Part shown: positions 1 through 50,054 of the stretch, piece by piece
Layout: each line of letters begins with the position of its first letter
Position numbering within the stretch: the stretch's first letter is position 1
Source: Escherichia coli
GTDB lineage: Bacteria; Pseudomonadota; Gammaproteobacteria; Enterobacterales; Enterobacteriaceae
Direction: 5' to 3' (one strand)
Assembly: GCF_003790525.1 (NCBI RefSeq)
Contig: NZ_CP033635.1
Length of the DNA stretch: 64,000 nt
Program-made: the position numbers and the translations under genes
The notes under the pieces: generated by a model
Database searches by the model: none
Seen by the model: only the letters and a program-made list of their open reading frames with translations
What the model was told of the DNA's origin: nothing

Positions 1-187
1 GTACCATATTTGTGGCGAGGACATCATTAAGCCCCAATTCACCGTCCTGTACTTTTTGCACCATAAACGCCATCGCTTCATTGACGGCGAGCTTCGCGCC
101 TTCTCCTCCCTGCGAAACGCTACCTGCGCCATCAGCAAGGAACATCACCAGTAATGGCTGCTGGTCATTTAGCCAGGCAACCTGCAT
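1..187 (-). CDS. yegK: PP2C-like serine/threonine phosphatase, N-terminal part only (gene continues past window start)
   Basis: Minus-strand frame open from ATG (plus 185-187) to the window edge: MQVAWLNDQQPLLVMFLADGAGSVSQGGEGAKLAVNEAMAF...; the DGAGS stretch resembles a PP2C metal-binding motif. Absent from the ORF track because no stop lies inside the window. Sits downstream of yegL as in E. coli. Confidence 0.5.
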   Translation of the reverse strand, partial: MQVAWLNDQQPLLVMFLADGAGSVSQGGEGAKLAVNEAMAFMVQKVQDGELGLNDVLATNMV

Positions 188-264
188 CTGGCAGGCATCC
201 TGACAAGGTAAATCAGCGCTAATGTGCGACGTTCCAACAGCGGATGCATAAACCAGACGCCAGC

Positions 265-924
265 TCACACTGACGTCCAGCCTTTTGGCGCTTCCAGCAC
301 AACTTCCGTTCCCGGCGTGGAGCGGGAAACCGAACGCAGTGAACTGGATAACCAGCTAAACAGTTCGCGGAATTGTAATCCCTGCAGAGACAAAGGCTGA
401 CGGACGCTGATTTGGGCCAGCGTCTTCATATCCGCCCCCTGAACACCGATGGAAAAGAAGGCAAACTTCTTATCTTCTTCCCCCTGAAACACTTTGTTGG
501 CGGCAGCCTGCCACTCATCGGTTGGAGCGCCATCGGTGATCAGGAAAATCCACGGGCGATAATACGAAATACCATTTGCACGATACTCACGTTTCCGCTC
601 CTCTACCATATCCAGGGCTTTGGTAATGGCGGCACCCATTGGTGTATCGCCCTGGGCAAACAGGATGGGCGGGAAAAAATTAGCGGCGCTGGTAAAGGGT
701 TGTTCCACATGCACCGGGCCGAACGTCACAATACCAAGTTCCACTCTTTTTAAGGCCAGCGGGTCGGCAAGCAGCTCATCGCGAAAGGTAACCAATCCGG
801 CGTTAAGTTCATTAATGGGTCTACCGTTCATCGAACCAGAAACATCCAGCAGCAAAATGCAGGGGCAACGTGGTTCCGGGTTACTGGCAAAATCGCTGGT
901 GGCAAACGTGATTTGTTCGCTCAT
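265..924 (-). CDS. yegL: von Willebrand factor A (vWA) domain protein
   Basis: 219-aa ORF; MIDAS-type motif LLLDVSGSM near the N-terminus; position before mdtA matches E. coli yegL. Confidence 0.85.
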
Positions 925-1105
925 AAGAAATCCTTTCTTAGAGAATTATTGAGGTCCGGTATCATACCGATTGCAATAATGAAATAAGAGCAAACGAAGA
1001 AACTTTCAGAATTAGGCCCGGCGGCGCAGAAAATTTTGCTATTCGCCTCGCAAGAACGGAGAGCCGTCGATTGACACTAAGGGCGGAGTGACATAATTTC
1101 AGGAG

Positions 1106-1256
1106 TGAGGGTTAGGGAGAGGTTTCCCCCTCCCCCTGGTGTTCTTAGTAAGCCTGGAAGCTAATCACTAAGAGTATCACCAGTATGATGACGTGCTTCA
1201 TCATAACCCTTTCCTTATTTAAAAGCCCTCTTCTCCGGGAGAGGGTTCCCCGTTTT
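1106..1256 (+). ncRNA. sibA: Sib-type antisense sRNA (antitoxin) fully overlapping the ibs ORF; ends approximate
   Basis: Promoter TTGACA (1071-1076) - 17 bp - TAATTT (1094-1099) on plus strand; GC-rich hairpin plus T-run at about 1225-1256; arrangement antisense to the ibs ORF as known for Sib RNAs. Confidence 0.6.
1145..1204 (-). CDS. ibsA: Ibs-family type I toxin peptide (19 aa, MMKHVIILVILLVISFQAY)
   Basis: Hand translation of the minus strand; matches the Ibs toxin family pattern (MMK + hydrophobic core + FPAY-like end) remembered from E. coli ibsA-E. Confidence 0.75.
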   Translation of the reverse strand: MMKHVIILVILLVISFQAY

Positions 1257-1441
1257 AGCGTCCCGCTGAAATCGTCGGCTTACCTCCTTTCGCCCTGAAT
1301 GCAGTCTATCGCTGACTTGCGGATAAAATAGTTTCAAGTGTGATTATTGCGTAACGACTCGCAAAGAATATTTGCTGGCAGGATCGCAGACTGCAAAGCC
1401 TGCAGATTGACAATCTTATCGTGAAGGCATACTTTCAGGAG

Positions 1442-1584
1442 TGAGGGTAGAGCGGGGTTTCCCCCGCCCTGGTAGTCTTAGTAAGCGGGGAAGCTTATGA
1501 CTAAGAGCACCACGATGATGAGTAGCTTCATCATGACCCTTTCCTTATTTAAGGCCCCTTCCTCGGGAGGGGCTTTCCCGTTTC
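1442..1584 (+). ncRNA. sibB: Sib-type antisense sRNA (antitoxin); ends approximate
   Basis: Promoter TTGACA (1407-1412) - 17 bp - TACTTT (1430-1435); hairpin plus T-run at about 1554-1584. Confidence 0.6.
1478..1534 (-). CDS. ibsB: Ibs-family type I toxin peptide (18 aa, MMKLLIIVVLLVISFPAY)
   Basis: Hand translation of the minus strand; sequence as remembered for E. coli IbsB. Confidence 0.8.
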   Translation of the reverse strand: MMKLLIIVVLLVISFPAY

Positions 1585-1769
1585 AGCGTCCCGCTGAAAT
1601 CTTCGGCTTACCTCCTTTCGCCCTGTATGCAGTCTATCGCTGACTTGCGGATAAAATAGTTTCAAGTGTGATTATTGCGTAACGCCTCGCAAAGAATATT
1701 TGCTGGCAGGATCGCAGACTGCAAAGCCTGCGGATTGACAATCTGACCGTGAAGGCATACTTTCAGGAG

Positions 1770-1903
1770 TGAGGGTTGAGCGGGGTTTCCCCCGCCCTGG
1801 TAGTCTTAGTAAGCCGGGAAGCTTATGACTAAGAGCACCACGATGATGATCCACTTCATCATGACCCTTTCCTTATTTATGGCCCCTTCCTCGGGAGGGG
1901 CTT
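1770..1903 (+). ncRNA. Sib-type antisense sRNA (antitoxin), third copy; ends approximate
   Basis: Promoter TTGACA (1735-1740) - 17 bp - TACTTT (1758-1763); hairpin plus T-run at about 1873-1903. Confidence 0.55.
1806..1862 (-). CDS. Ibs-family type I toxin peptide, third copy (18 aa, MMKWIIIVVLLVISFPAY)
   Basis: Hand translation of the minus strand inside the third repeat unit; same family signature. Confidence 0.75.
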   Translation of the reverse strand: MMKWIIIVVLLVISFPAY

Positions 1904-2069
1904 TCCCGTTTCAGCGTCCCGCTGAAATCGTCGGCTTACCTCCTTTCGCCATGCAAGCAGTCTATCGCTAACGCGTAGATAAAATAGTTTCCTGTGTTAT
2001 TACTGGATGCGTGCTCGCAAATGTGCCCGCCATTCAGACGATTCCCGATAGTGTTTCATAATTCCTCCA

Positions 2070-2087
2070 TTTTTCTCCCTTATTGGC
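2070..2087 (+). promoter_or_regulatory. BaeR box upstream of mdtA
   Basis: TTTTTCTCCCTTATTGGC matches the published BaeR consensus TTTTTCTCCATDATTGGC at 17 of 18 positions, about 55 bp upstream of the mdtA start. Confidence 0.6.
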
Positions 2088-2140
2088 TGGCTACACTAGT
2101 ATCATTCCGCGAAACGTTTCAGGAAGAGAAACTCTTAACG

Positions 2141-3388
2141 ATGAAAGGCAGTTATAAATCCCGTTGGGTAATCGTAATCGTGGTGGTTATCGCCGCCATC
2201 GCCGCATTCTGGTTCTGGCAAGGCCGCAATGACTCCCAGAGTGCAGCCCCAGGGGCGACGAAACAAGCGCAGCAATCGCCAGCGGGTGGTCGCCGTGGTA
2301 TGCGTTCCGGCCCATTAGCCCCGGTTCAGGCGGCGACCGCCGTAGAACAGGCAGTTCCGCGTTACCTCACCGGGCTTGGCACCATTACCGCTGCTAACAC
2401 CGTTACGGTGCGCAGCCGCGTAGATGGTCAGTTGATGGCGTTACATTTCCAGGAAGGCCAGCAGGTCAAAGCAGGCGATTTACTGGCAGAAATTGACCCC
2501 AGCCAGTTCAAAGTTGCATTAGCACAAGCCCAGGGCCAACTGGCAAAAGATAAAGCCACGCTTGCCAACGCCCGCCGTGACCTGGCGCGTTATCAACAAC
2601 TGGTAAAAACCAATCTCGTATCTCGTCAGGAACTGGATGCCCAACAAGCGCTGGTCAGTGAAACCGAAGGCACCATTAAGGCTGATGAAGCAAGCGTCGC
2701 CAGCGCACAGCTGCAACTCGACTGGAGCCGCATCACCGCACCAGTCGATGGTCGCGTTGGTCTCAAGCAGGTTGATGTTGGTAACCAAATCTCCAGTGGT
2801 GATACCACCGGAATTGTGGTGATCACCCAGACGCATCCTATCGATTTGCTCTTTACCCTGCCGGAAAGCGATATCGCTACCGTTGTGCAGGCGCAAAAAG
2901 CCGGAAAACCGCTGGTGGTAGAAGCCTGGGATCGCACCAACTCGAAGAAATTAAGTGAAGGCACGCTGTTAAGTCTCGATAACCAAATCGATGCCACTAC
3001 CGGTACGATTAAAGTGAAAGCACGCTTTAATAATCAGGATGATGCGCTGTTTCCCAATCAGTTTGTTAACGCGCGCATGTTAGTCGACACCGAACAAAAC
3101 GCCGTAGTGATCCCAACAGCCGCCCTGCAAATGGGCAATGAAGGCCATTTTGTCTGGGTACTGAATAGCGAAAACAAGGTCAGCAAACATCTGGTGACGC
3201 CGGGCATTCAGGACAGTCAGAAAGTGGTGATCCGCGCAGGTATTTCTGCGGGCGATCGCGTGGTGACAGACGGCATTGATCGCCTGACCGAAGGGGCGAA
3301 AGTGGAAGTGGTGGAAGCCCAGAGCGCCACCACTCCGGAAGAGAAAGCCACCAGCCGCGAATACGCGAAAAAAGGAGCACGCTCCTGA
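2141..3388 (+). CDS. mdtA: RND efflux membrane fusion protein MdtA (415 aa)
   Basis: ORF 1994-3388 trimmed to ATG at 2141 ([14 protein letters not shown]...); periplasmic adaptor-like sequence; stop overlaps the mdtB start (TGATG). Confidence 0.9.
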
Positions 3389-6300
3389 TGCAGGTGTTAC
3401 CCCCGAGCAGCACAGGCGGCCCGTCGCGCCTGTTTATTATGCGTCCTGTGGCCACCACGCTGCTGATGGTGGCGATCTTACTCGCCGGGATTATCGGTTA
3501 TCGCGCCCTGCCCGTTTCGGCGCTGCCGGAAGTGGACTATCCGACCATTCAGGTGGTCACGCTCTACCCAGGTGCGAGCCCGGATGTCATGACCTCTGCC
3601 GTTACCGCGCCGCTCGAACGCCAGTTCGGGCAGATGTCTGGTCTGAAACAGATGTCGTCGCAAAGTTCCGGCGGTGCGTCAGTTATCACTTTGCAGTTCC
3701 AGCTAACATTACCGCTGGATGTCGCCGAGCAGGAAGTACAGGCCGCGATTAACGCTGCGACCAACTTGTTGCCGAGCGATCTGCCTAACCCGCCGGTTTA
3801 CAGCAAAGTGAACCCGGCAGATCCGCCGATCATGACGCTCGCCGTCACCTCAACAGCCATGCCGATGACGCAAGTGGAAGATATGGTGGAAACCCGCGTC
3901 GCGCAGAAAATCTCGCAGATTTCCGGCGTCGGCCTGGTGACGCTTTCCGGCGGCCAGCGTCCGGCTGTTCGCGTCAAACTTAACGCTCAGGCGATTGCCG
4001 CCCTCGGCCTGACCAGCGAAACCGTGCGCACCGCCATTACCGGCGCTAACGTTAACTCGGCAAAAGGTAGCCTCGACGGCCCTTCCCGCGCGGTTACGCT
4101 TTCCGCGAATGACCAAATGCAATCTGCGGAAGAATATCGCCAGTTGATTATCGCCTACCAGAACGGCGCGCCGATTCGTCTGGGCGATGTCGCAACTGTA
4201 GAGCAAGGTGCAGAAAACAGCTGGCTCGGCGCATGGGCGAACAAAGAACAGGCCATTGTGATGAATGTTCAGCGCCAGCCCGGTGCTAACATTATCTCCA
4301 CCGCCGACAGCATCCGGCAGATGCTGCCACAGCTCACCGAGAGTTTGCCGAAATCGGTGAAGGTGACGGTACTTTCTGACCGTACCACCAATATCCGCGC
4401 ATCTGTCGATGATACTCAGTTTGAATTGATGATGGCTATCGCGCTGGTAGTCATGATTATCTACCTGTTTTTGCGCAATATTCCGGCGACCATCATTCCC
4501 GGTGTTGCCGTGCCGCTGTCGTTAATCGGCACTTTTGCGGTTATGGTGTTTCTCGATTTTTCAATCAATAACCTGACACTGATGGCGTTAACTATCGCCA
4601 CCGGATTCGTGGTCGATGACGCCATCGTGGTGATCGAAAACATTTCCCGCTATATCGAAAAAGGCGAAAAACCGTTGGCGGCGGCGCTCAAGGGCGCAGG
4701 TGAAATCGGCTTTACCATTATCTCGCTGACCTTCTCACTGATTGCGGTGTTGATCCCACTGCTGTTTATGGGCGATATCGTCGGGCGACTGTTCCGCGAA
4801 TTTGCTATTACCCTGGCGGTAGCGATTTTGATCTCAGCGGTGGTGTCGCTGACCCTGACACCGATGATGTGCGCGCGGATGCTCAGCCAGGAGTCGTTGC
4901 GTAAACAGAACCGCTTCTCCCGTGCCTCGGAAAAAATGTTCGACAGGATAATCGCCGCCTATGGTCGTGGACTGGCGAAAGTGCTGAATCATCCGTGGCT
5001 GACCTTAAGCGTGGCACTCAGCACGCTGCTGCTTAGCGTGCTGCTGTGGGTGTTCATTCCGAAAGGTTTCTTCCCGGTACAGGACAATGGCATTATTCAG
5101 GGCACTTTGCAGGCACCGCAATCCAGCTCCTTTGCCAATATGGCCCAGCGACAACGCCAGGTCGCGGACGTGATTTTGCAGGATCCGGCAGTGCAAAGCC
5201 TGACCTCATTTGTTGGCGTTGATGGCACTAACCCGTCGCTGAACAGTGCACGTTTACAAATCAACCTCAAACCGTTGGATGAACGTGATGATCGGGTGCA
5301 AAAAGTCATCGCCCGTCTGCAAACGGCGGTAGATAAAGTGCCGGGCGTCGATCTCTTCCTGCAACCAACGCAGGATCTGACTATTGATACTCAGGTCAGC
5401 CGCACCCAGTACCAGTTTACCTTGCAGGCCACGTCACTGGATGCGCTCAGTACCTGGGTGCCACAGTTGATGGAAAAACTCCAGCAACTGCCACAGCTTT
5501 CTGATGTCTCCAGCGACTGGCAGGACAAAGGGCTGGTGGCGTATGTCAATGTTGATCGCGACAGCGCCAGCCGTCTGGGGATCAGCATGGCGGATGTCGA
5601 TAACGCCCTGTACAACGCGTTTGGTCAGCGGCTGATTTCCACTATTTATACTCAGGCCAACCAGTATCGCGTGGTGCTGGAGCACAACACCGAAAATACC
5701 CCAGGCCTCGCGGCGCTGGATACCATTCGCCTGACCAGCAGCGACGGCGGCGTGGTGCCGCTAAGCTCAATTGCCAAAATTGAGCAGCGTTTTGCGCCGC
5801 TCTCCATCAACCATCTGGATCAGTTCCCGGTAACGACCATCTCCTTTAACGTGCCGGATAACTATTCGCTGGGCGATGCGGTGCAGGCGATTATGGACAC
5901 CGAAAAGACGCTGAATCTGCCGGTGGATATCACCACGCAGTTCCAGGGCAGCACCCTCGCCTTCCAGTCGGCGCTGGGCAGCACTGTCTGGCTGATTGTC
6001 GCGGCGGTGGTGGCGATGTATATCGTGCTCGGCATTCTGTACGAGAGCTTTATTCACCCGATCACCATTCTCTCGACGCTACCCACCGCAGGGGTTGGCG
6101 CACTGCTGGCGTTGCTGATTGCTGGTAGCGAACTGGATGTGATTGCGATTATCGGCATTATTTTGCTGATCGGTATCGTGAAGAAGAACGCCATCATGAT
6201 GATCGACTTCGCGCTGGCTGCCGAGCGCGAGCAAGGCATGTCGCCGCGCGAGGCAATCTACCAGGCTTGTCTGTTGCGTTTTCGTCCGATCCTGATGACC

Positions 6301-6510
6301 ACCCTGGCGGCTCTGCTTGGCGCGCTGCCGCTGATGTTGAGTACCGGGGTCGGCGCGGAACTGCGTCGTCCGTTAGGTATCGGCATGGTCGGCGGCCTGA
6401 TTGTCAGCCAGGTGCTGACGCTGTTCACCACGCCGGTGATTTATCTGCTGTTCGACCGCCTGGCATTGTGGACCAAAAGCCGCTTTGCCCGTCATGAAGA
6501 GGAGGCGTAA
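3388..6510 (+). CDS. mdtB: RND multidrug efflux transporter MdtB (1040 aa)
   Basis: 1040-aa ORF with 12-TM RND architecture, a paralog of the next ORF. Confidence 0.95.
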
Positions 6511-9500
6511 GTGAAGTTTTTTGCCCTCTTCATTTACCGTCCGGTGGCGACGATTTTACTGTCGGTTGCCATTACCCTGTGCGGCATACTGGGCTTCCGT
6601 ATGCTGCCGGTCGCCCCGCTGCCGCAGGTCGATTTTCCGGTGATTATGGTCAGCGCCTCGCTGCCCGGTGCGTCACCAGAAACAATGGCGTCTTCCGTTG
6701 CCACGCCGCTGGAGCGCTCACTTGGGCGCATTGCCGGAGTCAGTGAAATGACCTCCAGCAGTTCGCTCGGCAGCACGCGTATTATTTTGCAGTTTGATTT
6801 TGACCGGGATATCAACGGCGCAGCGCGTGATGTGCAGGCGGCGATCAACGCTGCACAAAGTTTGCTGCCCAGTGGGATGCCCAGCCGCCCGACCTATCGC
6901 AAAGCGAACCCGTCGGATGCGCCAATTATGATCCTCACGCTGACGTCCGATACTTATTCGCAGGGTGAACTGTACGATTTCGCCTCGACGCAGCTGGCTC
7001 CGACGATTTCGCAAATCGACGGTGTTGGTGATGTCGATGTCGGAGGCAGCTCACTGCCCGCCGTACGCGTCGGGCTGAATCCGCAGGCGCTGTTTAATCA
7101 GGGCGTGTCGCTGGACGACGTACGCACCGCCGTCAGCAATGCCAACGTGCGTAAACCGCAGGGCGCGCTGGAAGATGGCACTCACCGCTGGCAGATCCAG
7201 ACCAATGATGAGCTAAAAACCGCCGCTGAATATCAGCCGTTGATTATTCACTACAACAACGGCGGCGCGGTTCGTCTGGGCGATGTGGCGACGGTGACCG
7301 ACTCAGTGCAGGATGTGCGCAACGCCGGGATGACCAACGCCAAACCGGCTATTTTACTGATGATCCGCAAACTGCCGGAAGCCAATATTATCCAGACGGT
7401 TGACAGCATCCGGGCAAAATTACCGGAGTTGCAGGAAACCATTCCGGCGGCGATTGATCTGCAAATTGCCCAGGATCGCTCCCCCACCATTCGCGCCTCG
7501 CTGGAAGAAGTCGAGCAAACGCTGATTATCTCGGTGGCGCTGGTGATTCTGGTGGTGTTTTTATTCCTGCGCTCGGGTCGCGCCACTATTATTCCCGCCG
7601 TTTCGGTGCCGGTTTCGCTGATTGGTACGTTTGCGGCGATGTACCTGTGCGGATTCAGTCTCAATAACCTTTCGTTAATGGCGCTCACCATCGCTACTGG
7701 TTTCGTGGTGGATGACGCCATCGTGGTGCTGGAAAACATTGCACGTCATCTGGAAGCGGGAATGAAACCGTTGCAAGCCGCACTGCAAGGTACTCGCGAA
7801 GTCGGTTTTACGGTGCTGTCGATGAGTCTGTCACTGGTGGCGGTGTTCCTGCCGCTGCTGTTGATGGGCGGATTGCCGGGCCGACTGTTACGCGAATTTG
7901 CCGTGACGCTTTCTGTCGCCATTGGTATATCGTTGCTGGTTTCTCTGACATTAACGCCAATGATGTGTGGCTGGATGCTGAAAGCCAGCAAGCCGCGCGA
8001 GCAAAAGCGACTGCGTGGTTTTGGTCGCATGTTGGTAGCCCTGCAACAAGGCTACGGCAAGTCACTGAAATGGGTGCTCAATCATACCCGTCTGGTGGGC
8101 GTGGTGCTGCTTGGCACCATTGCGCTGAATATCTGGCTGTATATCTCGATCCCGAAAACCTTCTTCCCGGAGCAGGACACTGGCGTGTTGATGGGCGGGA
8201 TTCAGGCGGATCAGAGTATTTCGTTTCAGGCGATGCGCGGTAAGTTGCAGGATTTCATGAAAATTATCCGTGACGATCCGGCAGTGGATAATGTCACCGG
8301 CTTTACAGGCGGTTCGCGAGTGAACAGCGGGATGATGTTTATCACCCTCAAGCCACGCGACGAACGCAGCGAAACGGCGCAGCAAATTATCGACCGTCTG
8401 CGCGTAAAACTGGCGAAAGAACCGGGGGCGAATCTGTTCCTGATGGCGGTACAGGATATTCGCGTTGGTGGGCGTCAGTCGAACGCCAGCTACCAGTACA
8501 CGTTGTTATCCGACGACCTGGCGGCACTGCGAGAATGGGAGCCGAAAATCCGCAAAAAACTGGCGACGTTGCCGGAACTGGCGGACGTGAACTCCGATCA
8601 GCAGGATAACGGCGCGGAGATGAATCTGGTTTACGACCGCGACACCATGGCACGGCTGGGAATCGACGTACAAGCCGCCAACAGTCTGTTAAATAACGCC
8701 TTCGGTCAGCGGCAAATCTCGACCATTTACCAGCCGATGAACCAGTATAAAGTGGTGATGGAAGTGGATCCGCGCTATACCCAGGACATCAGTGCGCTGG
8801 AAAAAATGTTCGTTATCAATAACGAAGGCAAAGCGATCCCGCTGTCGTATTTCGCTAAATGGCAACCGGCGAATGCCCCACTATCGGTGAATCATCAGGG
8901 ATTATCGGCGGCCTCGACCATTTCGTTTAACCTGCCGACCGGAAAATCGCTCTCGGACGCCAGTGCGGCGATCGATCGCGCAATGACCCAGCTTGGTGTG
9001 CCTTCGACGGTGCGCGGCAGTTTTGCCGGCACGGCGCAGGTGTTCCAGGAGACGATGAACTCGCAGGTGATCCTGATTATCGCCGCCATCGCCACGGTGT
9101 ATATCGTGCTGGGTATCCTTTACGAGAGTTACGTACATCCGCTGACGATTCTCTCCACCCTGCCCTCGGCGGGCGTTGGAGCGCTGTTGGCGCTGGAGCT
9201 GTTCAATGCCCCGTTCAGCCTAATCGCCCTGATAGGGATCATGCTTTTAATCGGCATCGTGAAGAAAAACGCCATTATGATGGTCGATTTTGCGCTTGAA
9301 GCCCAACGGCACGGTAACCTGACGCCGCAGGAAGCTATTTTCCAGGCCTGTCTGCTGCGTTTTCGCCCGATTATGATGACTACCCTGGCGGCGCTGTTTG
9401 GTGCGCTGCCGCTGGTATTGTCGGGCGGCGACGGCTCGGAGCTGCGGCAACCCCTGGGGATCACCATTGTCGGCGGACTGGTAATGAGCCAGCTCCTTAC

Positions 9501-19231: not shown

Positions 19232-20695
19232 TTATTGATTGCGATAGTTCAGGTCGTTGTGATACAGCGCAGTAAACTGCTGATATCGTTGCATCAGCGC
19301 ATTATGACGTTCAGGATCGCTGCGCCAGGTTTTGAAGATTTCAGGTTTTTCACACACTGCCGCCAGTGGTTTTCCCGCAGCAAGACAGGCCAGACGCGCG
19401 GCTCCCAGCGCCCCACCCGTTTCACCGCCTTTATGCGTCACCACTGGCATATCGAGAATATCGGCCAGTAACTGCGCCCAGAATGGACTTCTCGCCCCCC
19501 CACCTACCAGCGAGCATTGCTCAATTGCCGTACCGCTTTCTTGCAGGACTCGCAGCCCATCGGCAATACCAAAGCTGACGCCTTCCAGCACTGCATATCC
19601 CATTAGCGCACGCTGACTGGAGTGTGTCAGCGCCCAGAACAATCCCCGGGCATGAGGATCGTTATGTGGCGTACGTTCACCAGAAAGATACGGGAGGAAC
19701 ATCGGTGCACTGGCTTTGTCTGCATCAGAAAGTTGGGCAATCTCTTCCAGTAACTCTGTTTCCGTTACCCCCACCAGACGGCAGAACCATTGCAGACAAC
19801 TGGCGGCACTGAGCATTACACTCATCTGGTGCCATAAATTCGGTAGTACGTGACAGAAAGCATGGACTGCTGATTGCGGCGCAGGACGATAGGCATCAGT
19901 CACTACAAACAACACCCCGGAAGTTCCCAAAGAAATAAACGCATCTCCGGGAGAAACGGCCCCCACACCAATTGCGCTCACGGCGTTATCGCCACCGCCA
20001 CCAGCAACTACAACCGAAGATGTCAGCCCCCAACGGCTGGCAACTTCAGGGGAAAGAGTGGCAGAAACGTCACAACCTTCCACCAGTTCCGGCATATTCG
20101 CCCGTGTCAGGCCACATTTTTCCAGCAACGAATCTGACCAGTCGCGTTTTTCCACGTCGAGCCACAACGTGCCAGCAGAATCCGACATATCGGAAATCTT
20201 TTGGCCGGTCATTTTGAAACGCAAATAGTCTTTCGGCAGTAAAACGGTGGAAATGCGCGCAAAGTGCTGCGGCTCATGGCGCCGTACCCATAGCAATTTG
20301 GGGGCGGTAAATCCAGGCATCGCCAGGTTTCCCGCTACCTGATGCAACTCTGGTGCGATCTCTTCCAGCTCCGCACACTCCTGCGCACTGCGGGTGTCGT
20401 TCCATAAAATCGCCGGACGAATCGCCTCTCCTTTTTCATCCAACAGGACGGCACCATGCATTTGACCAGAAAGGCCAATGGCTTTGATCGCCTGCCAGTG
20501 GTGACCGCATTTTTCCCGCAGGGTCGACATTAAATATTCCGTCGCTTCCCACCAGGCTTGCGGCGATTGTTCTGACCAGTGTGGATGGGGCCGCTGAATG
20601 GTCAGCGGCGCACTATGGGTGGCAACAATTTCATTGTTTTCATCAATGACCAGCGCCTTAACTTCCGATGTGCCCAGATCGATACCCAGATACAT
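19232..20695 (-). CDS. atlK: FGGY-family kinase, xylulokinase-like (487 aa)
   Basis: N-terminus MYLGIDLGTSEVKA typical of FGGY sugar kinases; AGGAGG before the ATG. Confidence 0.85.
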   Translation of the reverse strand: MYLGIDLGTSEVKALVIDENNEIVATHSAPLTIQRPHPHWSEQSPQAWWEATEYLMSTLREKCGHHWQAIKAIGLSGQMHGAVLLDEKGEAIRPAILWNDTRSAQECAELEEIAPELHQVAGNLAMPGFTAPKLLWVRRHEPQHFARISTVLLPKDYLRFKMTGQKISDMSDSAGTLWLDVEKRDWSDSLLEKCGLTRANMPELVEGCDVSATLSPEVASRWGLTSSVVVAGGGGDNAVSAIGVGAVSPGDAFISLGTSGVLFVVTDAYRPAPQSAVHAFCHVLPNLWHQMSVMLSAASCLQWFCRLVGVTETELLEEIAQLSDADKASAPMFLPYLSGERTPHNDPHARGLFWALTHSSQRALMGYAVLEGVSFGIADGLRVLQESGTAIEQCSLVGGGARSPFWAQLLADILDMPVVTHKGGETGGALGAARLACLAAGKPLAAVCEKPEIFKTWRSDPERHNALMQRYQQFTALYHNDLNYRNQ

Positions 20696-34426: not shown

Positions 34427-35227
34427 TCACCACCAGGCGTGGAAGTGGTGAACCGGACCAATACCGTGACCAACTTCCAGCATGTCGGCCTGGGCTAACG
34501 CCGATGAAAGCCAGCTTTTTGCCTCCTGTACGGTGTCAGCCCAGTTTGTATGGCGCGGGCGTAGTGCAGCCAACGCCGCAGAGAGTGTACAACCAGTGCC
34601 GTGGGTGTTTTTGGTCATAATGCGCGGTGCGGTAAACCGTTGTTCACCCTCGCGAGTAAACAGCCAGTCCGGGCTTTGCTCATCATCCAGATGACCACCT
34701 TTCATTAGCACTGCGCCACAGCCCATCGCCAACAGCGATCGCCCTTGTTCCAGCATTTCCTGTTCGTTGCGCGCGTGTGGCGCGTCGAGCAAGGCGGCAG
34801 CTTCGGGCAAGTTTGGCGTTATTAATGAAACCTGTGGCAATAATCGACTGCGCAGCGTAGCAACCGCCGAAGGTGAAAGCAGCGGATCGCCGCTTTTTGC
34901 CAGCATAACAGTGTCGAGTACCACGTTTTGGATCTGATAACGTTGCAACCGTTCTGCCACCGCTTCAACAATATCGGTTTCCGCCAACATACCGATTTTA
35001 GTGGTATCGATTCGCACATCGCTGAACACCGAATCGAGCTGGGCGGCGACAAAATCAGGCTCAATGCGATACACCGACTGTACGCCACGGGTATTTTGCG
35101 CCACCAGTGCAGTAATAACTGAGCAACCATAAGCGCCAAGTGCCGAGAAGGTTTTAAGATCGGCCTGAATCCCCGCACCACCACTCGGATCAGTACCGGC
35201 AATCGTCAGAGCGTTAATTCGTTTCAT
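34427..35227 (-). CDS. thiD: Hydroxymethylpyrimidine/phosphomethylpyrimidine kinase ThiD (266 aa)
   Basis: [31 protein letters not shown]..., the ThiD/PdxK family N-terminus. Confidence 0.9.
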
Positions 35228-36012
35228 GCCTGCACCTCCTGCGTCAATTGCCAGAGCGCATCAAGGAAATGTGGAACAAAACTGCCTGGCCCCTCGCTTC
35301 TGGCGACAGCGCGTTCTCCGGCTTGTTTCATCCAGTGACAGGCAGATGCGACATTTTCCAGCATATCGCCTGGTAAGGCACAACAGGCAGCGACAACCGC
35401 CGATAATGCACAGCCAGTTCCTACCACTTTGGTCATTAACGGATCGCCACCGTGAATACCAATGATACGATGTCCATCGGTAACATAATCCACCTCGCCA
35501 GTGACCACGACGATTGCGCCAGTTTCCCGTGCCAGTGTTTGTGCAGCGGGTATCGCGTTAGCTGCGGCGTCAGTGGTATCCACTCCCCGTCCGCCATTAG
35601 CAATGCCAGCTAATGCCATGATTTCCGAAGCATTACCACGTATCGCTGCCGGTTTAAAAGATAAAAGTTCATGACAAAAATGGCGGCGATAATCGAGCGC
35701 ACCCACCGCTACTGGATCAAGCGTCCAGGGTGTTTGAGAGCTTTTTGCTTGCTCAACGGCAGCACGCATCGCCTGTGCGCGTGGCTGCGTCAGTGTGCCA
35801 ACGTTAATCAACAAGGCACTGGCGATAGCCGCAAACTGACTGGCCTCTTCGGTTTCGATAACCATCGCTGGCGATGCACCGAGCGCCAGCAAGGTATTGG
35901 CGGTAAAGGTTTGCACCACATCATTGGTCATGCAGTGCACAAGAGGGGAATGTTGGTGAAAAAGGTGTAACGCGTGCGCAGATTGCGCTGAACCCAGCAG
36001 GTCGACTTGCAT
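35224..36012 (-). CDS. thiM: Hydroxyethylthiazole kinase ThiM (262 aa)
   Basis: 262-aa ORF overlapping the thiD start; a TPP riboswitch lies immediately upstream. Confidence 0.9.
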
Positions 36013-36039
36013 AGTTTGCTCCTGCCATAACGTGAAGAA

Positions 36040-36145
36040 GCAATGACCTGGTGGTCCGTGACTTCCCTACGCTGGCATTATCCAGATCAGGTGATACGGG
36101 TATTTCTCAGCCTTCACGCAGAAGGGCACCCCGAGTCGTTTGGTT
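36040..36145 (-). ncRNA. TPP (thi-box) riboswitch in the thiMD leader; ends approximate
   Basis: Minus strand reads GGGGTGCCCTTCTGCGTGAAGGCTGAGAAATACCCGTATCACCTGATCTGGATAATGCCAGCGTAGGGAA, containing the conserved CTGAGA and ACCTGATCTGGATAATGCCAGCG elements of the thiM riboswitch. Confidence 0.85.
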
Positions 36146-36234
36146 GCGATGATAAATCGCAGAGGAGGATGGTAATGTCCAGCGCACGCGTTGTAAACGA
36201 GGAAAAACGGCAGTTTTACAATCGCGTTAATAAA

Positions 36235-36507
36235 TTATTTGATATATGAATCCAGCACCTTCAGAACGACATCCAGATCTTCTTCACGTTTTAGCTCATC
36301 CCCCTGGTGAACGATGTGTTCCGTCAGATGACCTTTAATCACTTCCCGCATCAGACCGTTTACCGCGCCACGGATAGCAGCAATCTGTTGTAAAACTGCA
36401 GCGCATTCGTGCGGCTCGTCGAGCATTTTCTTGAGCGCCACGACCTGGCCCTGAATCTTACTGGCACGCGCTTTCAGTTTCTGTTTATCACGGATTGTAT
36501 GAGACAT
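36235..36507 (-). CDS. rcnR: Ni/Co-responsive repressor RcnR (90 aa, RcnR/CsoR family)
   Basis: 90-aa [24 protein letters not shown]... divergent from rcnA. Confidence 0.9.
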
Positions 36508-36555
36508 GGCAACACCTGGTTAACAAGAATATGAAAAATCATAGCACTATTAATC

Positions 36556-36590
36556 TACTGGGGGGTAGTATCAGGTACTGGGGGGGAGTA
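36556..36590. promoter_or_regulatory. Tandem RcnR operator sites (TACT-G6/7-N-AGTA)
   Basis: TACTGGGGGGTAGTA (36556-36570) and TACTGGGGGGGAGTA (36576-36590) in the rcnR-rcnA intergenic region; matches the published RcnR recognition motif. Confidence 0.8.
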
Positions 36591-36627
36591 GAATCAGATT
36601 GCCGAATTAATACTAAGAATTATTATC

Positions 36628-37452
36628 ATGACCGAATTTACAACTCTTCTTCAGCAAGGAAACGCCTGGTTCTTCATCCCCAGCGCCATCTTACTTGGTG
36701 CGCTTCATGGCCTGGAACCAGGGCACTCAAAAACGATGATGGCGGCGTTTATCATCGCCATCAAAGGCACCATTAAACAGGCGGTGATGCTCGGACTGGC
36801 AGCAACCATTTCGCATACCGCGGTGGTCTGGTTGATTGCCTTTGGCGGGATGGTGATCAGTAAGCGCTTTACTGCTCAATCAGCAGAACCGTGGCTCCAG
36901 CTGATTTCCGCAGTGATCATTATTAGCACCGCGTTCTGGATGTTCTGGCGTACCTGGCGCGGCGAACGCAACTGGCTGGAGAATATGCACGGGCATGATT
37001 ATGAGCATCATCATCACGATCACGAAGATCACCACGACCATGGACATCATCACCATCACGAACATGGCGAGTATCAGGATGCCCATGCACGAGCCCATGC
37101 CAATGATATTAAACGACGCTTTGATGGTAGAGAGGTCACCAACTGGCAAATTTTGTTATTTGGCTTAACAGGTGGTCTTATCCCCTGTCCGGCAGCAATT
37201 ACCGTGCTGTTGATTTGCATTCAGTTGAAAGCCCTGACACTGGGCGCAACACTGGTCGTCAGTTTCAGCATTGGCCTGGCGTTAACGCTGGTCACCGTAG
37301 GCGTTGGCGCAGCAATCAGCGTTCAGCAGGTCGCAAAACGCTGGAGCGGATTTAACACTCTCGCTAAACGCGCCCCCTATTTTTCCAGTCTGTTGATTGG
37401 CTTAGTTGGTGTGTATATGGGCGTACATGGCTTCATGGGCATAATGCGATAA
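36628..37452 (+). CDS. rcnA: Nickel/cobalt efflux protein RcnA (274 aa) with His-rich loop
   Basis: Membrane protein with central loop HGHDYEHHHHDHEDHHDHGHHHHHEHGEYQDAHARAH. Confidence 0.9.
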   Translation: MTEFTTLLQQGNAWFFIPSAILLGALHGLEPGHSKTMMAAFIIAIKGTIKQAVMLGLAATISHTAVVWLIAFGGMVISKRFTAQSAEPWLQLISAVIIISTAFWMFWRTWRGERNWLENMHGHDYEHHHHDHEDHHDHGHHHHHEHGEYQDAHARAHANDIKRRFDGREVTNWQILLFGLTGGLIPCPAAITVLLICIQLKALTLGATLVVSFSIGLALTLVTVGVGAAISVQQVAKRWSGFNTLAKRAPYFSSLLIGLVGVYMGVHGFMGIMR

Positions 37453-37670: not shown

Positions 37671-38009
37671 ATGACCATTAAAAATAAGATGTTGCTGGGT
37701 GTGCTTTTGCTGGTTACCAGTGCCGCCTGGGCCGCACCAGCCACCGCGGGTTCGACCAATACCTCGGGAATTTCTAAGTATGAGTTAAGTAGTTTCATTG
37801 CTGACTTTAAGCATTTCAAACCAGGTGATACCGTCCCAGAGATGTACCGCACCGATGAGTACAACATTAAGCAGTGGCAGTTACGTAACCTGCCCGCGCC
37901 TGATGCCGGGACGCACTGGACCTATATGGGTGGCGCGTACGTGTTGATCAGCGACACCGACGGTAAAATCATTAAAGCCTACGACGGTGAGATTTTTTAT
38001 CATCGCTAA
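37671..38009 (+). CDS. rcnB: Periplasmic protein RcnB/YohN (112 aa)
   Basis: ORF 37491-38009 trimmed to ATG at 37671 after GGAGAG; signal peptide MTIKNKMLLGVLLLVTSAAWA. Confidence 0.8.
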   Translation: MTIKNKMLLGVLLLVTSAAWAAPATAGSTNTSGISKYELSSFIADFKHFKPGDTVPEMYRTDEYNIKQWQLRNLPAPDAGTHWTYMGGAYVLISDTDGKIIKAYDGEIFYHR

Positions 38010-48715: not shown

Positions 48716-50054
48716 CATAAGCGCTAACTTAAGGGTTGTGGTATTACGCCTGATATGATTTAACGTGCCGATGAATTACTCTCACGATAACTGGTCAGCA
48801 ATTCTGGCCCATATTGGTAAGCCCGAAGAACTGGATACTTCGGCACGTAATGCCGGGGCTCTAACCCGCCGCCGCGAAATTCGTGATGCTGCAACTCTGC
48901 TACGTCTGGGGCTGGCTTACGGCCCCGGGGGGATGTCATTACGTGAAGTCACTGCATGGGCTCAGCTCCATGACGTTGCAACATTATCTGACGTGGCTCT
49001 CCTGAAGCGGCTGCGGAATGCCGCCGACTGGTTTGGCATACTTGCCGCACAAACACTTGCTGTACGCGCCGCAGTTACGGGTTGTACAAGCGGAAAGAGA
49101 TTGCGTCTTGTCGATGGAACAGCAATCAGTGCGCCCGGGGGCGGCAGCGCTGAATGGCGACTACATATGGGATATGATCCTCATACCTGTCAGTTCACTG
49201 ATTTTGAGCTAACCGACAGCAGAGACGCTGAACGGCTGGACCGATTTGCGCAAACGGCAGACGAGATACGCATTGCTGACCGGGGATTCGGTTCGCGTCC
49301 CGAATGTATCCGCTCACTTGCTTTTGGAGAAGCTGATTATATCGTCCGGGTTCACTGGCGAGGATTGCGCTGGTTAACTGCAGAAGGAATGCGCTTTGAC
49401 ATGATGGGTTTTCTGCGCGGGCTGGATTGCGGTAAGAACGGTGAAACCACTGTAATGATAGGCAATTCAGGTAATAAAAAAGCCGGAGCTCCCTTTCCGG
49501 CACGTCTCATTGCCGTATCACTTCCTCCCGAAAAAGCATTAATCAGTAAAACCCGACTGCTCAGCGAGAATCGTCGAAAAGGACGAGTAGTTCAGGCGGA
49601 AACGCTGGAAGCAGCGGGCCATGTGCTATTGCTAACATCATTACCGGAAGATGAATATTCAGCAGAGCAAGTGGCTGATTGTTACCGTCTGCGATGGCAA
49701 ATTGAACTGGCTTTTAAGCGGCTCAAAAGTTTGCTGCACCTGGATGCTTTGCGTGCAAAGGAACCTGAACTCGCGAAAGCGTGGATATTTGCTAATCTAC
49801 TCGCCGCATTTTTAATTGACGACATAATCCAGCCATCGCTGGATTTCCCCCCCAGAAGTGCCGGATCCGAAAAGAAGAACTAACTCGTTGTGGAGAATAA
49901 CAAAAATGGTCATCTGGAGCTTACAGGTGGCCATTCGTGGGACAGTATCCCTGACAGCCTACAAAACGCAATTGAAGAACGCGAGGCATCGTCTTAACGA
50001 GGCACCGAGGCGTCGCATTCTTCAGATGGTTCAACCCTTAAGTTAGCGCTTATG
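48716..50054 (+). mobile_element. IS186 (IS4 family), about 1339 bp, with perfect 23-bp terminal inverted repeats and 10-bp target-site duplication
   Basis: Left end CATAAGCGCTAACTTAAGGGTTG (48716-48738), right end CAACCCTTAAGTTAGCGCTTATG (50032-50054); direct repeats AGTAGTCTCC at 48706-48715 and 50055-50064. Confidence 0.9.
48771..49883 (+). CDS. IS186 transposase (DDE, IS4 family; about 370 aa)
   Basis: MNYSHDNWSAILAHIGKPEELDTSARNAGALTRRREIRDAATLLRLGLAYGPGG..., the IS186 transposase as remembered; the ORF track starts two codons earlier at GTG 48765. Confidence 0.85.
   Translation: MNYSHDNWSAILAHIGKPEELDTSARNAGALTRRREIRDAATLLRLGLAYGPGGMSLREVTAWAQLHDVATLSDVALLKRLRNAADWFGILAAQTLAVRAAVTGCTSGKRLRLVDGTAISAPGGGSAEWRLHMGYDPHTCQFTDFELTDSRDAERLDRFAQTADEIRIADRGFGSRPECIRSLAFGEADYIVRVHWRGLRWLTAEGMRFDMMGFLRGLDCGKNGETTVMIGNSGNKKAGAPFPARLIAVSLPPEKALISKTRLLSENRRKGRVVQAETLEAAGHVLLLTSLPEDEYSAEQVADCYRLRWQIELAFKRLKSLLHLDALRAKEPELAKAWIFANLLAAFLIDDIIQPSLDFPPRSAGSEKKN

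Follow-up and report, generated by a model that had tools for sequence, protein, structure and literature searches.

The systems closest to the locus described here are the type 1 operators of the CsoR/RcnR family of repressors, which include the tandem FrmR sites at E. coli Pfrm. Type 1 sites across this family contain a tract of 3–8 bp and leave 6–9 bp between the repeats (PMC3902906, PMC5146963). The RcnR operator is credited to Iwig and Chivers 2009 (J Mol Biol 393:514) and Blaha et al. 2011 (Biochimie 93:434), both of which are cited as its source by the same four papers (PMC7055735, PMC3902906, PMC5146963, PMC7105576). In the account given in PMC3902906, the operator is a tandem of two type 1 sites, each of which is bound 1:1 by a tetramer via TACT/AGTA repeats, and the unbroken G/C tract of the site has A-form character that is read by shape. 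The portion of PMC5146963 that treats RcnR places the tandem sites on the same face with centres 19 bp apart; the count at the locus described here is 20 bp. Protection or shift of the operator by apo-RcnR, and its release by Ni(II) or Co(II), are cited as reported findings in PMC7055735, PMC3902906 and PMC5146963, and PMC7105576 makes use of the RcnR element as a portable cobalt-responsive operator. A second point of comparison is provided by the poly-G/poly-C tracts that lie between promoter elements in Neisseria, Haemophilus and Bordetella, which are likewise regulatory homopolymers whose length differs between strains.

The DNA analysed here, referred to as the window, is a 64-kb stretch of an E. 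coli genome. The original prediction placed two adjacent RcnR motifs, separated by 5 bp, in the rcnR-rcnA promoter, and both motifs were found where it had put them. The features of this region are as follows.

36235–36507, minus strand: rcnR, Ni(II)/Co(II)-responsive repressor, 90 aa (NCBIfam NF011613 RcnR equivalog, 197 bits against a cut-off of 138)
36538–36546, minus strand: TGCTATGAT, an extended -10-like element at a distance of 9 bp from site 1, candidate promoter of rcnR (read from the sequence)
36556–36570, unstranded: RcnR operator site 1, TACT-G6-T-AGTA, on the rcnR side, an exact match to the published motif
36560–36565: G6 tract of site 1
36571–36575, unstranded: spacer TCAGG, 5 bp, which sets the 20-bp start-to-start distance between the sites
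36576–36590, unstranded: RcnR operator site 2, TACT-G7-AGTA (N = G), on the rcnA side
36580–36586, plus strand: G7 homopolymer in site 2, with G6/G8 length polymorphism in a few percent of E. coli genomes
36589–36594, plus strand: TAGAAT, -10-like hexamer, candidate rcnA -10, overlapping the right half-site of site 2 (read from the sequence)
36628–37452, plus strand: rcnA, Ni/Co efflux transporter, 274 aa, with a His-rich loop (NCBIfam NF007454, 558 bits)
37671–38009, plus strand: rcnB, periplasmic accessory protein, 112 aa, downstream of rcnA (Pfam PF11776 RcnB; RefSeq equivalent position)

As read from the sequence, site 1 is TACTGGGGGGTAGTA and site 2 is TACTGGGGGGGAGTA, and both lie inside the 120-bp gap between the divergent rcnR and rcnA genes. 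In thousands of E. coli genomes, the flanking genes bear the RefSeq names rcnR and rcnA; rcnB received zero matches in the NCBIfam scan of the window ORFs. The segment from 36450 to 36700 (251 bp) is 100% identical to E. coli K-12 MG1655, in which the operator has the same sequence, the same two sites and the same divergent genes, and the operator region was found in 5,363 of 5,426 complete E. coli genomes. The fit to TACT-G6-N-AGTA and the location in the rcnR-rcnA promoter that had been predicted are thus borne out by the exact matches, the gene scores and the K-12 identity, and the G7 tract that had been ascribed to site 2 is present at the position listed. An Rfam scan of 35900–36800 returned nothing at the operator; its sole match was the thiM TPP riboswitch at 36047–36143 on the minus strand (RF00059, 71 bits, E 7e-14), which RefSeq also annotates and which lies just past the 3' end of rcnR, upstream of thiM (35224–36012, minus strand).

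When the 64-kb window was searched on both strands with TACTGGGGGGNAGTA at up to 2 mismatches, sites 1 and 2 were the only matches. Shuffled controls contained a mean of 0.17 matches at this threshold, and 2 matches were reached in 1 of 100 shuffles; for exact matches, the chance expectation is estimated from the 14 specified bases at about 5e-4 per window. These values weigh against the reading of the motifs as chance matches. A related reading, in which the motifs serve another CsoR-family regulator such as FrmR, draws on the NCBIfam scores of the repressor, among which FrmR ranks second (76 bits, below the cut-off of 133), and on the use of tandem type 1 sites by FrmR as well. The FrmR operator differs, however, in having ATAC/GTAT arms, 9-bp GC tracts and site centres 31 bp apart (PMC5146963, in its account of that operator), whereas the sites described here have TACT/AGTA arms with a 7-bp gap and centres 20 bp apart, and they are kept beside rcnR across about 80 species. 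Either form of this alternative is considered exceedingly improbable.

The motif pair is almost certainly the tandem type 1 operator of the CsoR/RcnR-family repressor RcnR, common to the rcnR and rcnA(B) promoters. This assignment is based on sequence, gene context, K-12 identity, and the deep conservation of the sites and of their 20-bp distance. A double TACT-G6-N-AGTA operator between rcnR and rcnA is already published, and its re-identification adds nothing about RcnR. The following go beyond the papers searched: site 2 carries G8 in O121:H19 and in further lineages, its right half-site has in rare cases lost 3 bp or 5 bp, and its 'N' position is almost always G throughout Enterobacterales.

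Since the window carries the K-12 sequence, the published experiments on the K-12 operator apply directly to it. In the mechanism known from the literature, which covers binding, stoichiometry, wrapping and the metal response, one RcnR tetramer occupies each TACT-G6-N-AGTA site when metal is absent, contacting the TACT/AGTA inverted repeats and recognizing the A-form-like shape of the unbroken G/C tract. The tetramers on both sites wrap the flanking DNA, and rcnA and rcnR are both repressed. Once RcnR has bound Ni(II) or Co(II), its affinity for DNA falls, allowing the efflux pump and the repressor to be expressed together.

The conservation of the operator was evaluated in a footprinting set of 80 loci, one genome per species, that were gathered by RcnR protein homology alone. 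RcnR identity in this set is 76–100%, and the species range from Escherichia to Morganella, Edwardsiella and one Vibrio. Both sites are kept in 68 of the 80 loci, and in 66 of these 68 they are 20 bp apart; the sequence of the spacer is variable among the species with tandem sites, while the distance is mostly constant. In the species profile, the operator is the best-conserved block of the rcnR-rcnA intergenic region. At 73 of 79 loci the sequence of site 2 matches TACTGGGGGGGAGTA exactly, a count that is independent of the alignment anchor by which the site 2 columns of the profile are fixed, and the species that possess one site only have kept the G7 form of site 2. Site 1 is TACTGGGGGGTAGTA in 59 of the 68 tandem-site species; its other forms have a G tract interrupted by a single A, T or C, apart from one form that has G5. 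These two counts show that the motif's 'N' is effectively G in site 2 and T in site 1. The exact TACT-G7-AGTA form in 73 of 79 loci also indicates that the length of the tract is strongly conserved and under strong constraint. The G7 run is thus a conserved component of site 2 and not a free-running repeat. The promoter-proximal site 2 is better conserved than site 1, which suggests that its 'N' position is not free and that it is the primary of the two sites.

Departures from the usual arrangement were observed in a small number of Escherichia genomes. The E. coli genome that serves as a GTDB species representative has the inter-site spacer TAATG in place of TCAGG, and Escherichia sp. MOD1-EC7003 has a 6-bp spacer, ATAATG, which sets the sites 21 bp apart. 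In Escherichia whittamii Sa2BVA5 (locus L021, upstream of position 1435), the start of rcnR is fused to approximately codon 12 of rcnA at a AACNCCTGGTT microhomology, and the entire operator and the start of rcnA are missing. This loss of the operator is either a real deletion or a misassembly.

Both sites may also overlap promoter elements. A consensus promoter scan called no element overlapping the sites and gave two weak matches only, both outside the operator, so the overlap with -10 and -35 elements is a reading of the sequence. The region of TAGAAT has the consensus AGTAgAaT with a column conservation of 80–90% among 75 species, and the TGCTATGAT element is conserved in part, with the consensus 'ta.ca.t' in the species profile. 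Site 2 probably overlaps the rcnA -10, and site 1 probably overlaps the upstream part of the rcnR promoter.

It had further been predicted that the length of the G7 tract could vary between strains and tune repression, and a comparison of the tract across E. coli genomes was proposed. This comparison was carried out with short exact-variant queries against the 5,426 complete E. coli genomes, and yielded both G6 and G8 versions of site 2, each in about 2% of complete genomes. The counts are listed below; the bands of '>=99%' identity on which they draw are upper bounds, as a few trimmed alignments were counted as 100% (e.g., L3Cip3, positions 1–46).

Operator site 2 (G7): G6 in at most 126 of 5,214 genomes (2.4%); G8 in at most 105 of 5,214 (2.0%)
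Operator site 1 (G6): G5 in 19–36 genomes; G7 in at most 32 of 5,338
Control, non-coding G7 downstream of arsC: G6 in 39 of 1,822 (2.1%); G8 in 2–5 of 1,822 (0.1–0.3%)
Control, coding G7 in the accessory xylB-like gene: G6 in 2 of 303; G8 in 0 of 303

The site 2 counts cover 5,214 of the 5,363 genomes that carry the locus, as the site 2 queries appear to seed only where the site 1 region is exact. Among these seeded genomes, the operator is exactly wild type in 4,816 (>92%). Metagenome contigs, which were scanned independently, gave 120 matches, of which 116 had G7, two had G8 and two had G6.

The non-coding control is the only G7/C7 found in positions 1–50 kb of the K-12 record CP009685. A core-gene G7/C7 tract was also sought in K-12 80–130 kb (the mur/fts cluster), and none was found. 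The coding G7 at 19495–19501 of the window was rejected as a baseline because its gene is present in only 303 of 5,426 complete genomes, which makes for a small and biased sample. This gene (19232–20695, minus strand) encodes a 487-aa FGGY sugar kinase that is annotated as xylB (xylulokinase); it belongs to an accessory region about 17 kb from rcnR, and strain F5656C1 carries the same region. The window contains additional homopolymers, C7 and G6, in a 372-aa ORF at 48765–49883 (plus strand), which we take to be an IS186/IS4-family transposase.

Comparison with the non-coding control separates the two kinds of variant. Calls of -1 at site 2 occur at the control rate, while calls of +1 are 7–18 times above it; strain variation beyond the error baseline is thus found for G8 (2.0% against 0.1–0.3%) and not for G6 (2.4% against 2.1%). 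The control tract also gauges how far assembly error may account for the apparent -1 variation of homopolymers in 'complete' genomes. One explanation of the data is that every difference in tract length is a long-read homopolymer error and that the tract is biologically always G7. The matching G6 rates agree with this explanation, as does the fact that many of the variant genomes are PacBio-era CDC/USDA assemblies (accessions CP027xxx–CP028xxx). The same is true of FG31-1, a G8 genome in which rcnA is annotated as frameshifted, and of a low-coverage metagenome contig with G6 (L124) that is full of gaps. Furthermore, two genomes of the O111-type rcnA haplotype, RM9322 (USA) and E2863 (Japan), show no difference over 8 kb and share G6, whereas three drafts with 0–1 mismatch to them over 1.6 kb have G7. 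The G7 drafts and the G6 rate of the control indicate that many of the G6 calls may be long-read deletion errors, and suggest that errors of -1 in homopolymers occur frequently in some 'complete' RefSeq genomes.

The G8 alleles, however, are not accounted for by sequencing error. Over 40 kb, the O121:H19 strain 16-9255, from Canadian flour, and the O121 strain RM8352, from a Californian creek, are separated by 3 SNPs without any indel, and G8 is present in each of them; relative to the window, O121 has only one other indel in a 20.5-kb colinear block. Two CDC genomes match the O121 pair over 656 bp without a difference and have G8 as well, and a draft NCBI assembly with the same RcnA allele is 100% identical to O121 over 1,625 bp, again with G8. 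Two further haplotypes carry the allele as well: over 8 kb, SCU-106 is 76 SNPs and ST2747 is 223 SNPs away from O121. A metagenome contig with G8 (L197) is 99.67% identical to the ST2747 haplotype. Since G8 occurs on at least three haplotypes, it has arisen more than once. Taken with the low rate of G8 at the control tract, these findings leave it highly improbable that all differences in length are errors. G8 is a real, heritable lineage allele, and the predicted variation between strains holds in that the G8 of O121:H19 is a genuine example of it.

The presence of real length variants raises a different explanation, in which G7 is a phase-variable contingency repeat whose frequent and reversible slippage switches or tunes rcnA within populations by altering the half-site spacing, the promoter spacing or both. 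Length variants of site 2 do occur at the numbers given above, G8 is present on at least three haplotypes and exceeds the control severalfold, and site 2 (G7) is more variable than site 1 (G6), all of which speak for such a repeat. In contrast, the G7 form in 73 of 79 species, at RcnR identities down to 76%, indicates purifying selection on length, and wild type prevails in E. coli. Free drift of tract length over evolution was not found among the species representatives, and the near-invariance of its length across about 80 species speaks against the tract as a general tuning knob. The variants that were checked appear clonally fixed: no difference around the tract separates the O121 genomes of Canadian, Californian and CDC origin, and in assemblies, which are the only data on switching within a clone, all O121 genomes examined have G8 and no mixture was seen. 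The G7 drafts and G6 complete genomes of the O111-type haplotype are compatible with either switching or error. A run of 7 G is short for classic phase variation, and no link of rcnR or rcnA to a homopolymer or to phase variation was found in the papers searched. Thus, in contrast to the tracts of Neisseria, Haemophilus and Bordetella, the RcnR G7 comprises just 7 bases and keeps its length from genus to genus, and its variants are apparently clonally fixed. A contingency function is accordingly judged highly improbable, and the tract is better regarded as a conserved element of the operator in which a few lineages carry an altered length.

The addition of one G widens the gap between TACT and AGTA from 7 to 8 bp and, if the promoter reading given above is right, would also shift the -10-like TAGAAT by one base relative to the upstream promoter elements. 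Because the gap between the arms, and potentially the promoter spacing, is altered by a single base, it is plausible that such a change affects repression or promoter strength. Type 1 sites across the family tolerate 6–9 bp between the arms, in different proteins (PMC3902906). It is therefore suggested, tentatively and with some doubt, that G8 is fixed in the O121:H19 Shiga-toxin lineage, is present on at least two other E. coli backgrounds and may confer heritably different basal or induced Ni/Co efflux on them. If so, G8 would represent natural cis-regulatory variation arising by slippage inside the operator of a metal sensor, and it raises the question of whether some STEC lineages differ in their handling of nickel and cobalt. 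G8 and the rare half-site deletions also offer natural variants with which to test half-site spacing in a CsoR/RcnR repressor that reads shape.

The half-site deletions were each observed in a single named strain. In E. coli 097H6, a 5-bp deletion removes the AGTA arm of site 2 together with TAGAAT, and in E. coli L3Cip3 a 3-bp deletion turns site 2 into TACTGGGGGGTAGAAT; either deletion could derepress or disable the expression of rcnA. Site 1 is altered in E. coli O55:H7 USDA5905, where a T-to-C change at its 'N' position (window 36566) gives TACTGGGGGGCAGTA. This C is a natural example of the degenerate 'N' position of site 1. A common C-to-A SNP is located at 36595, just outside the operator. 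Lastly, the length of rcnA is 837 nt in E. coli H32 and 825 nt in most strains, and differences of this type possibly result from variation in the His-rich loop.
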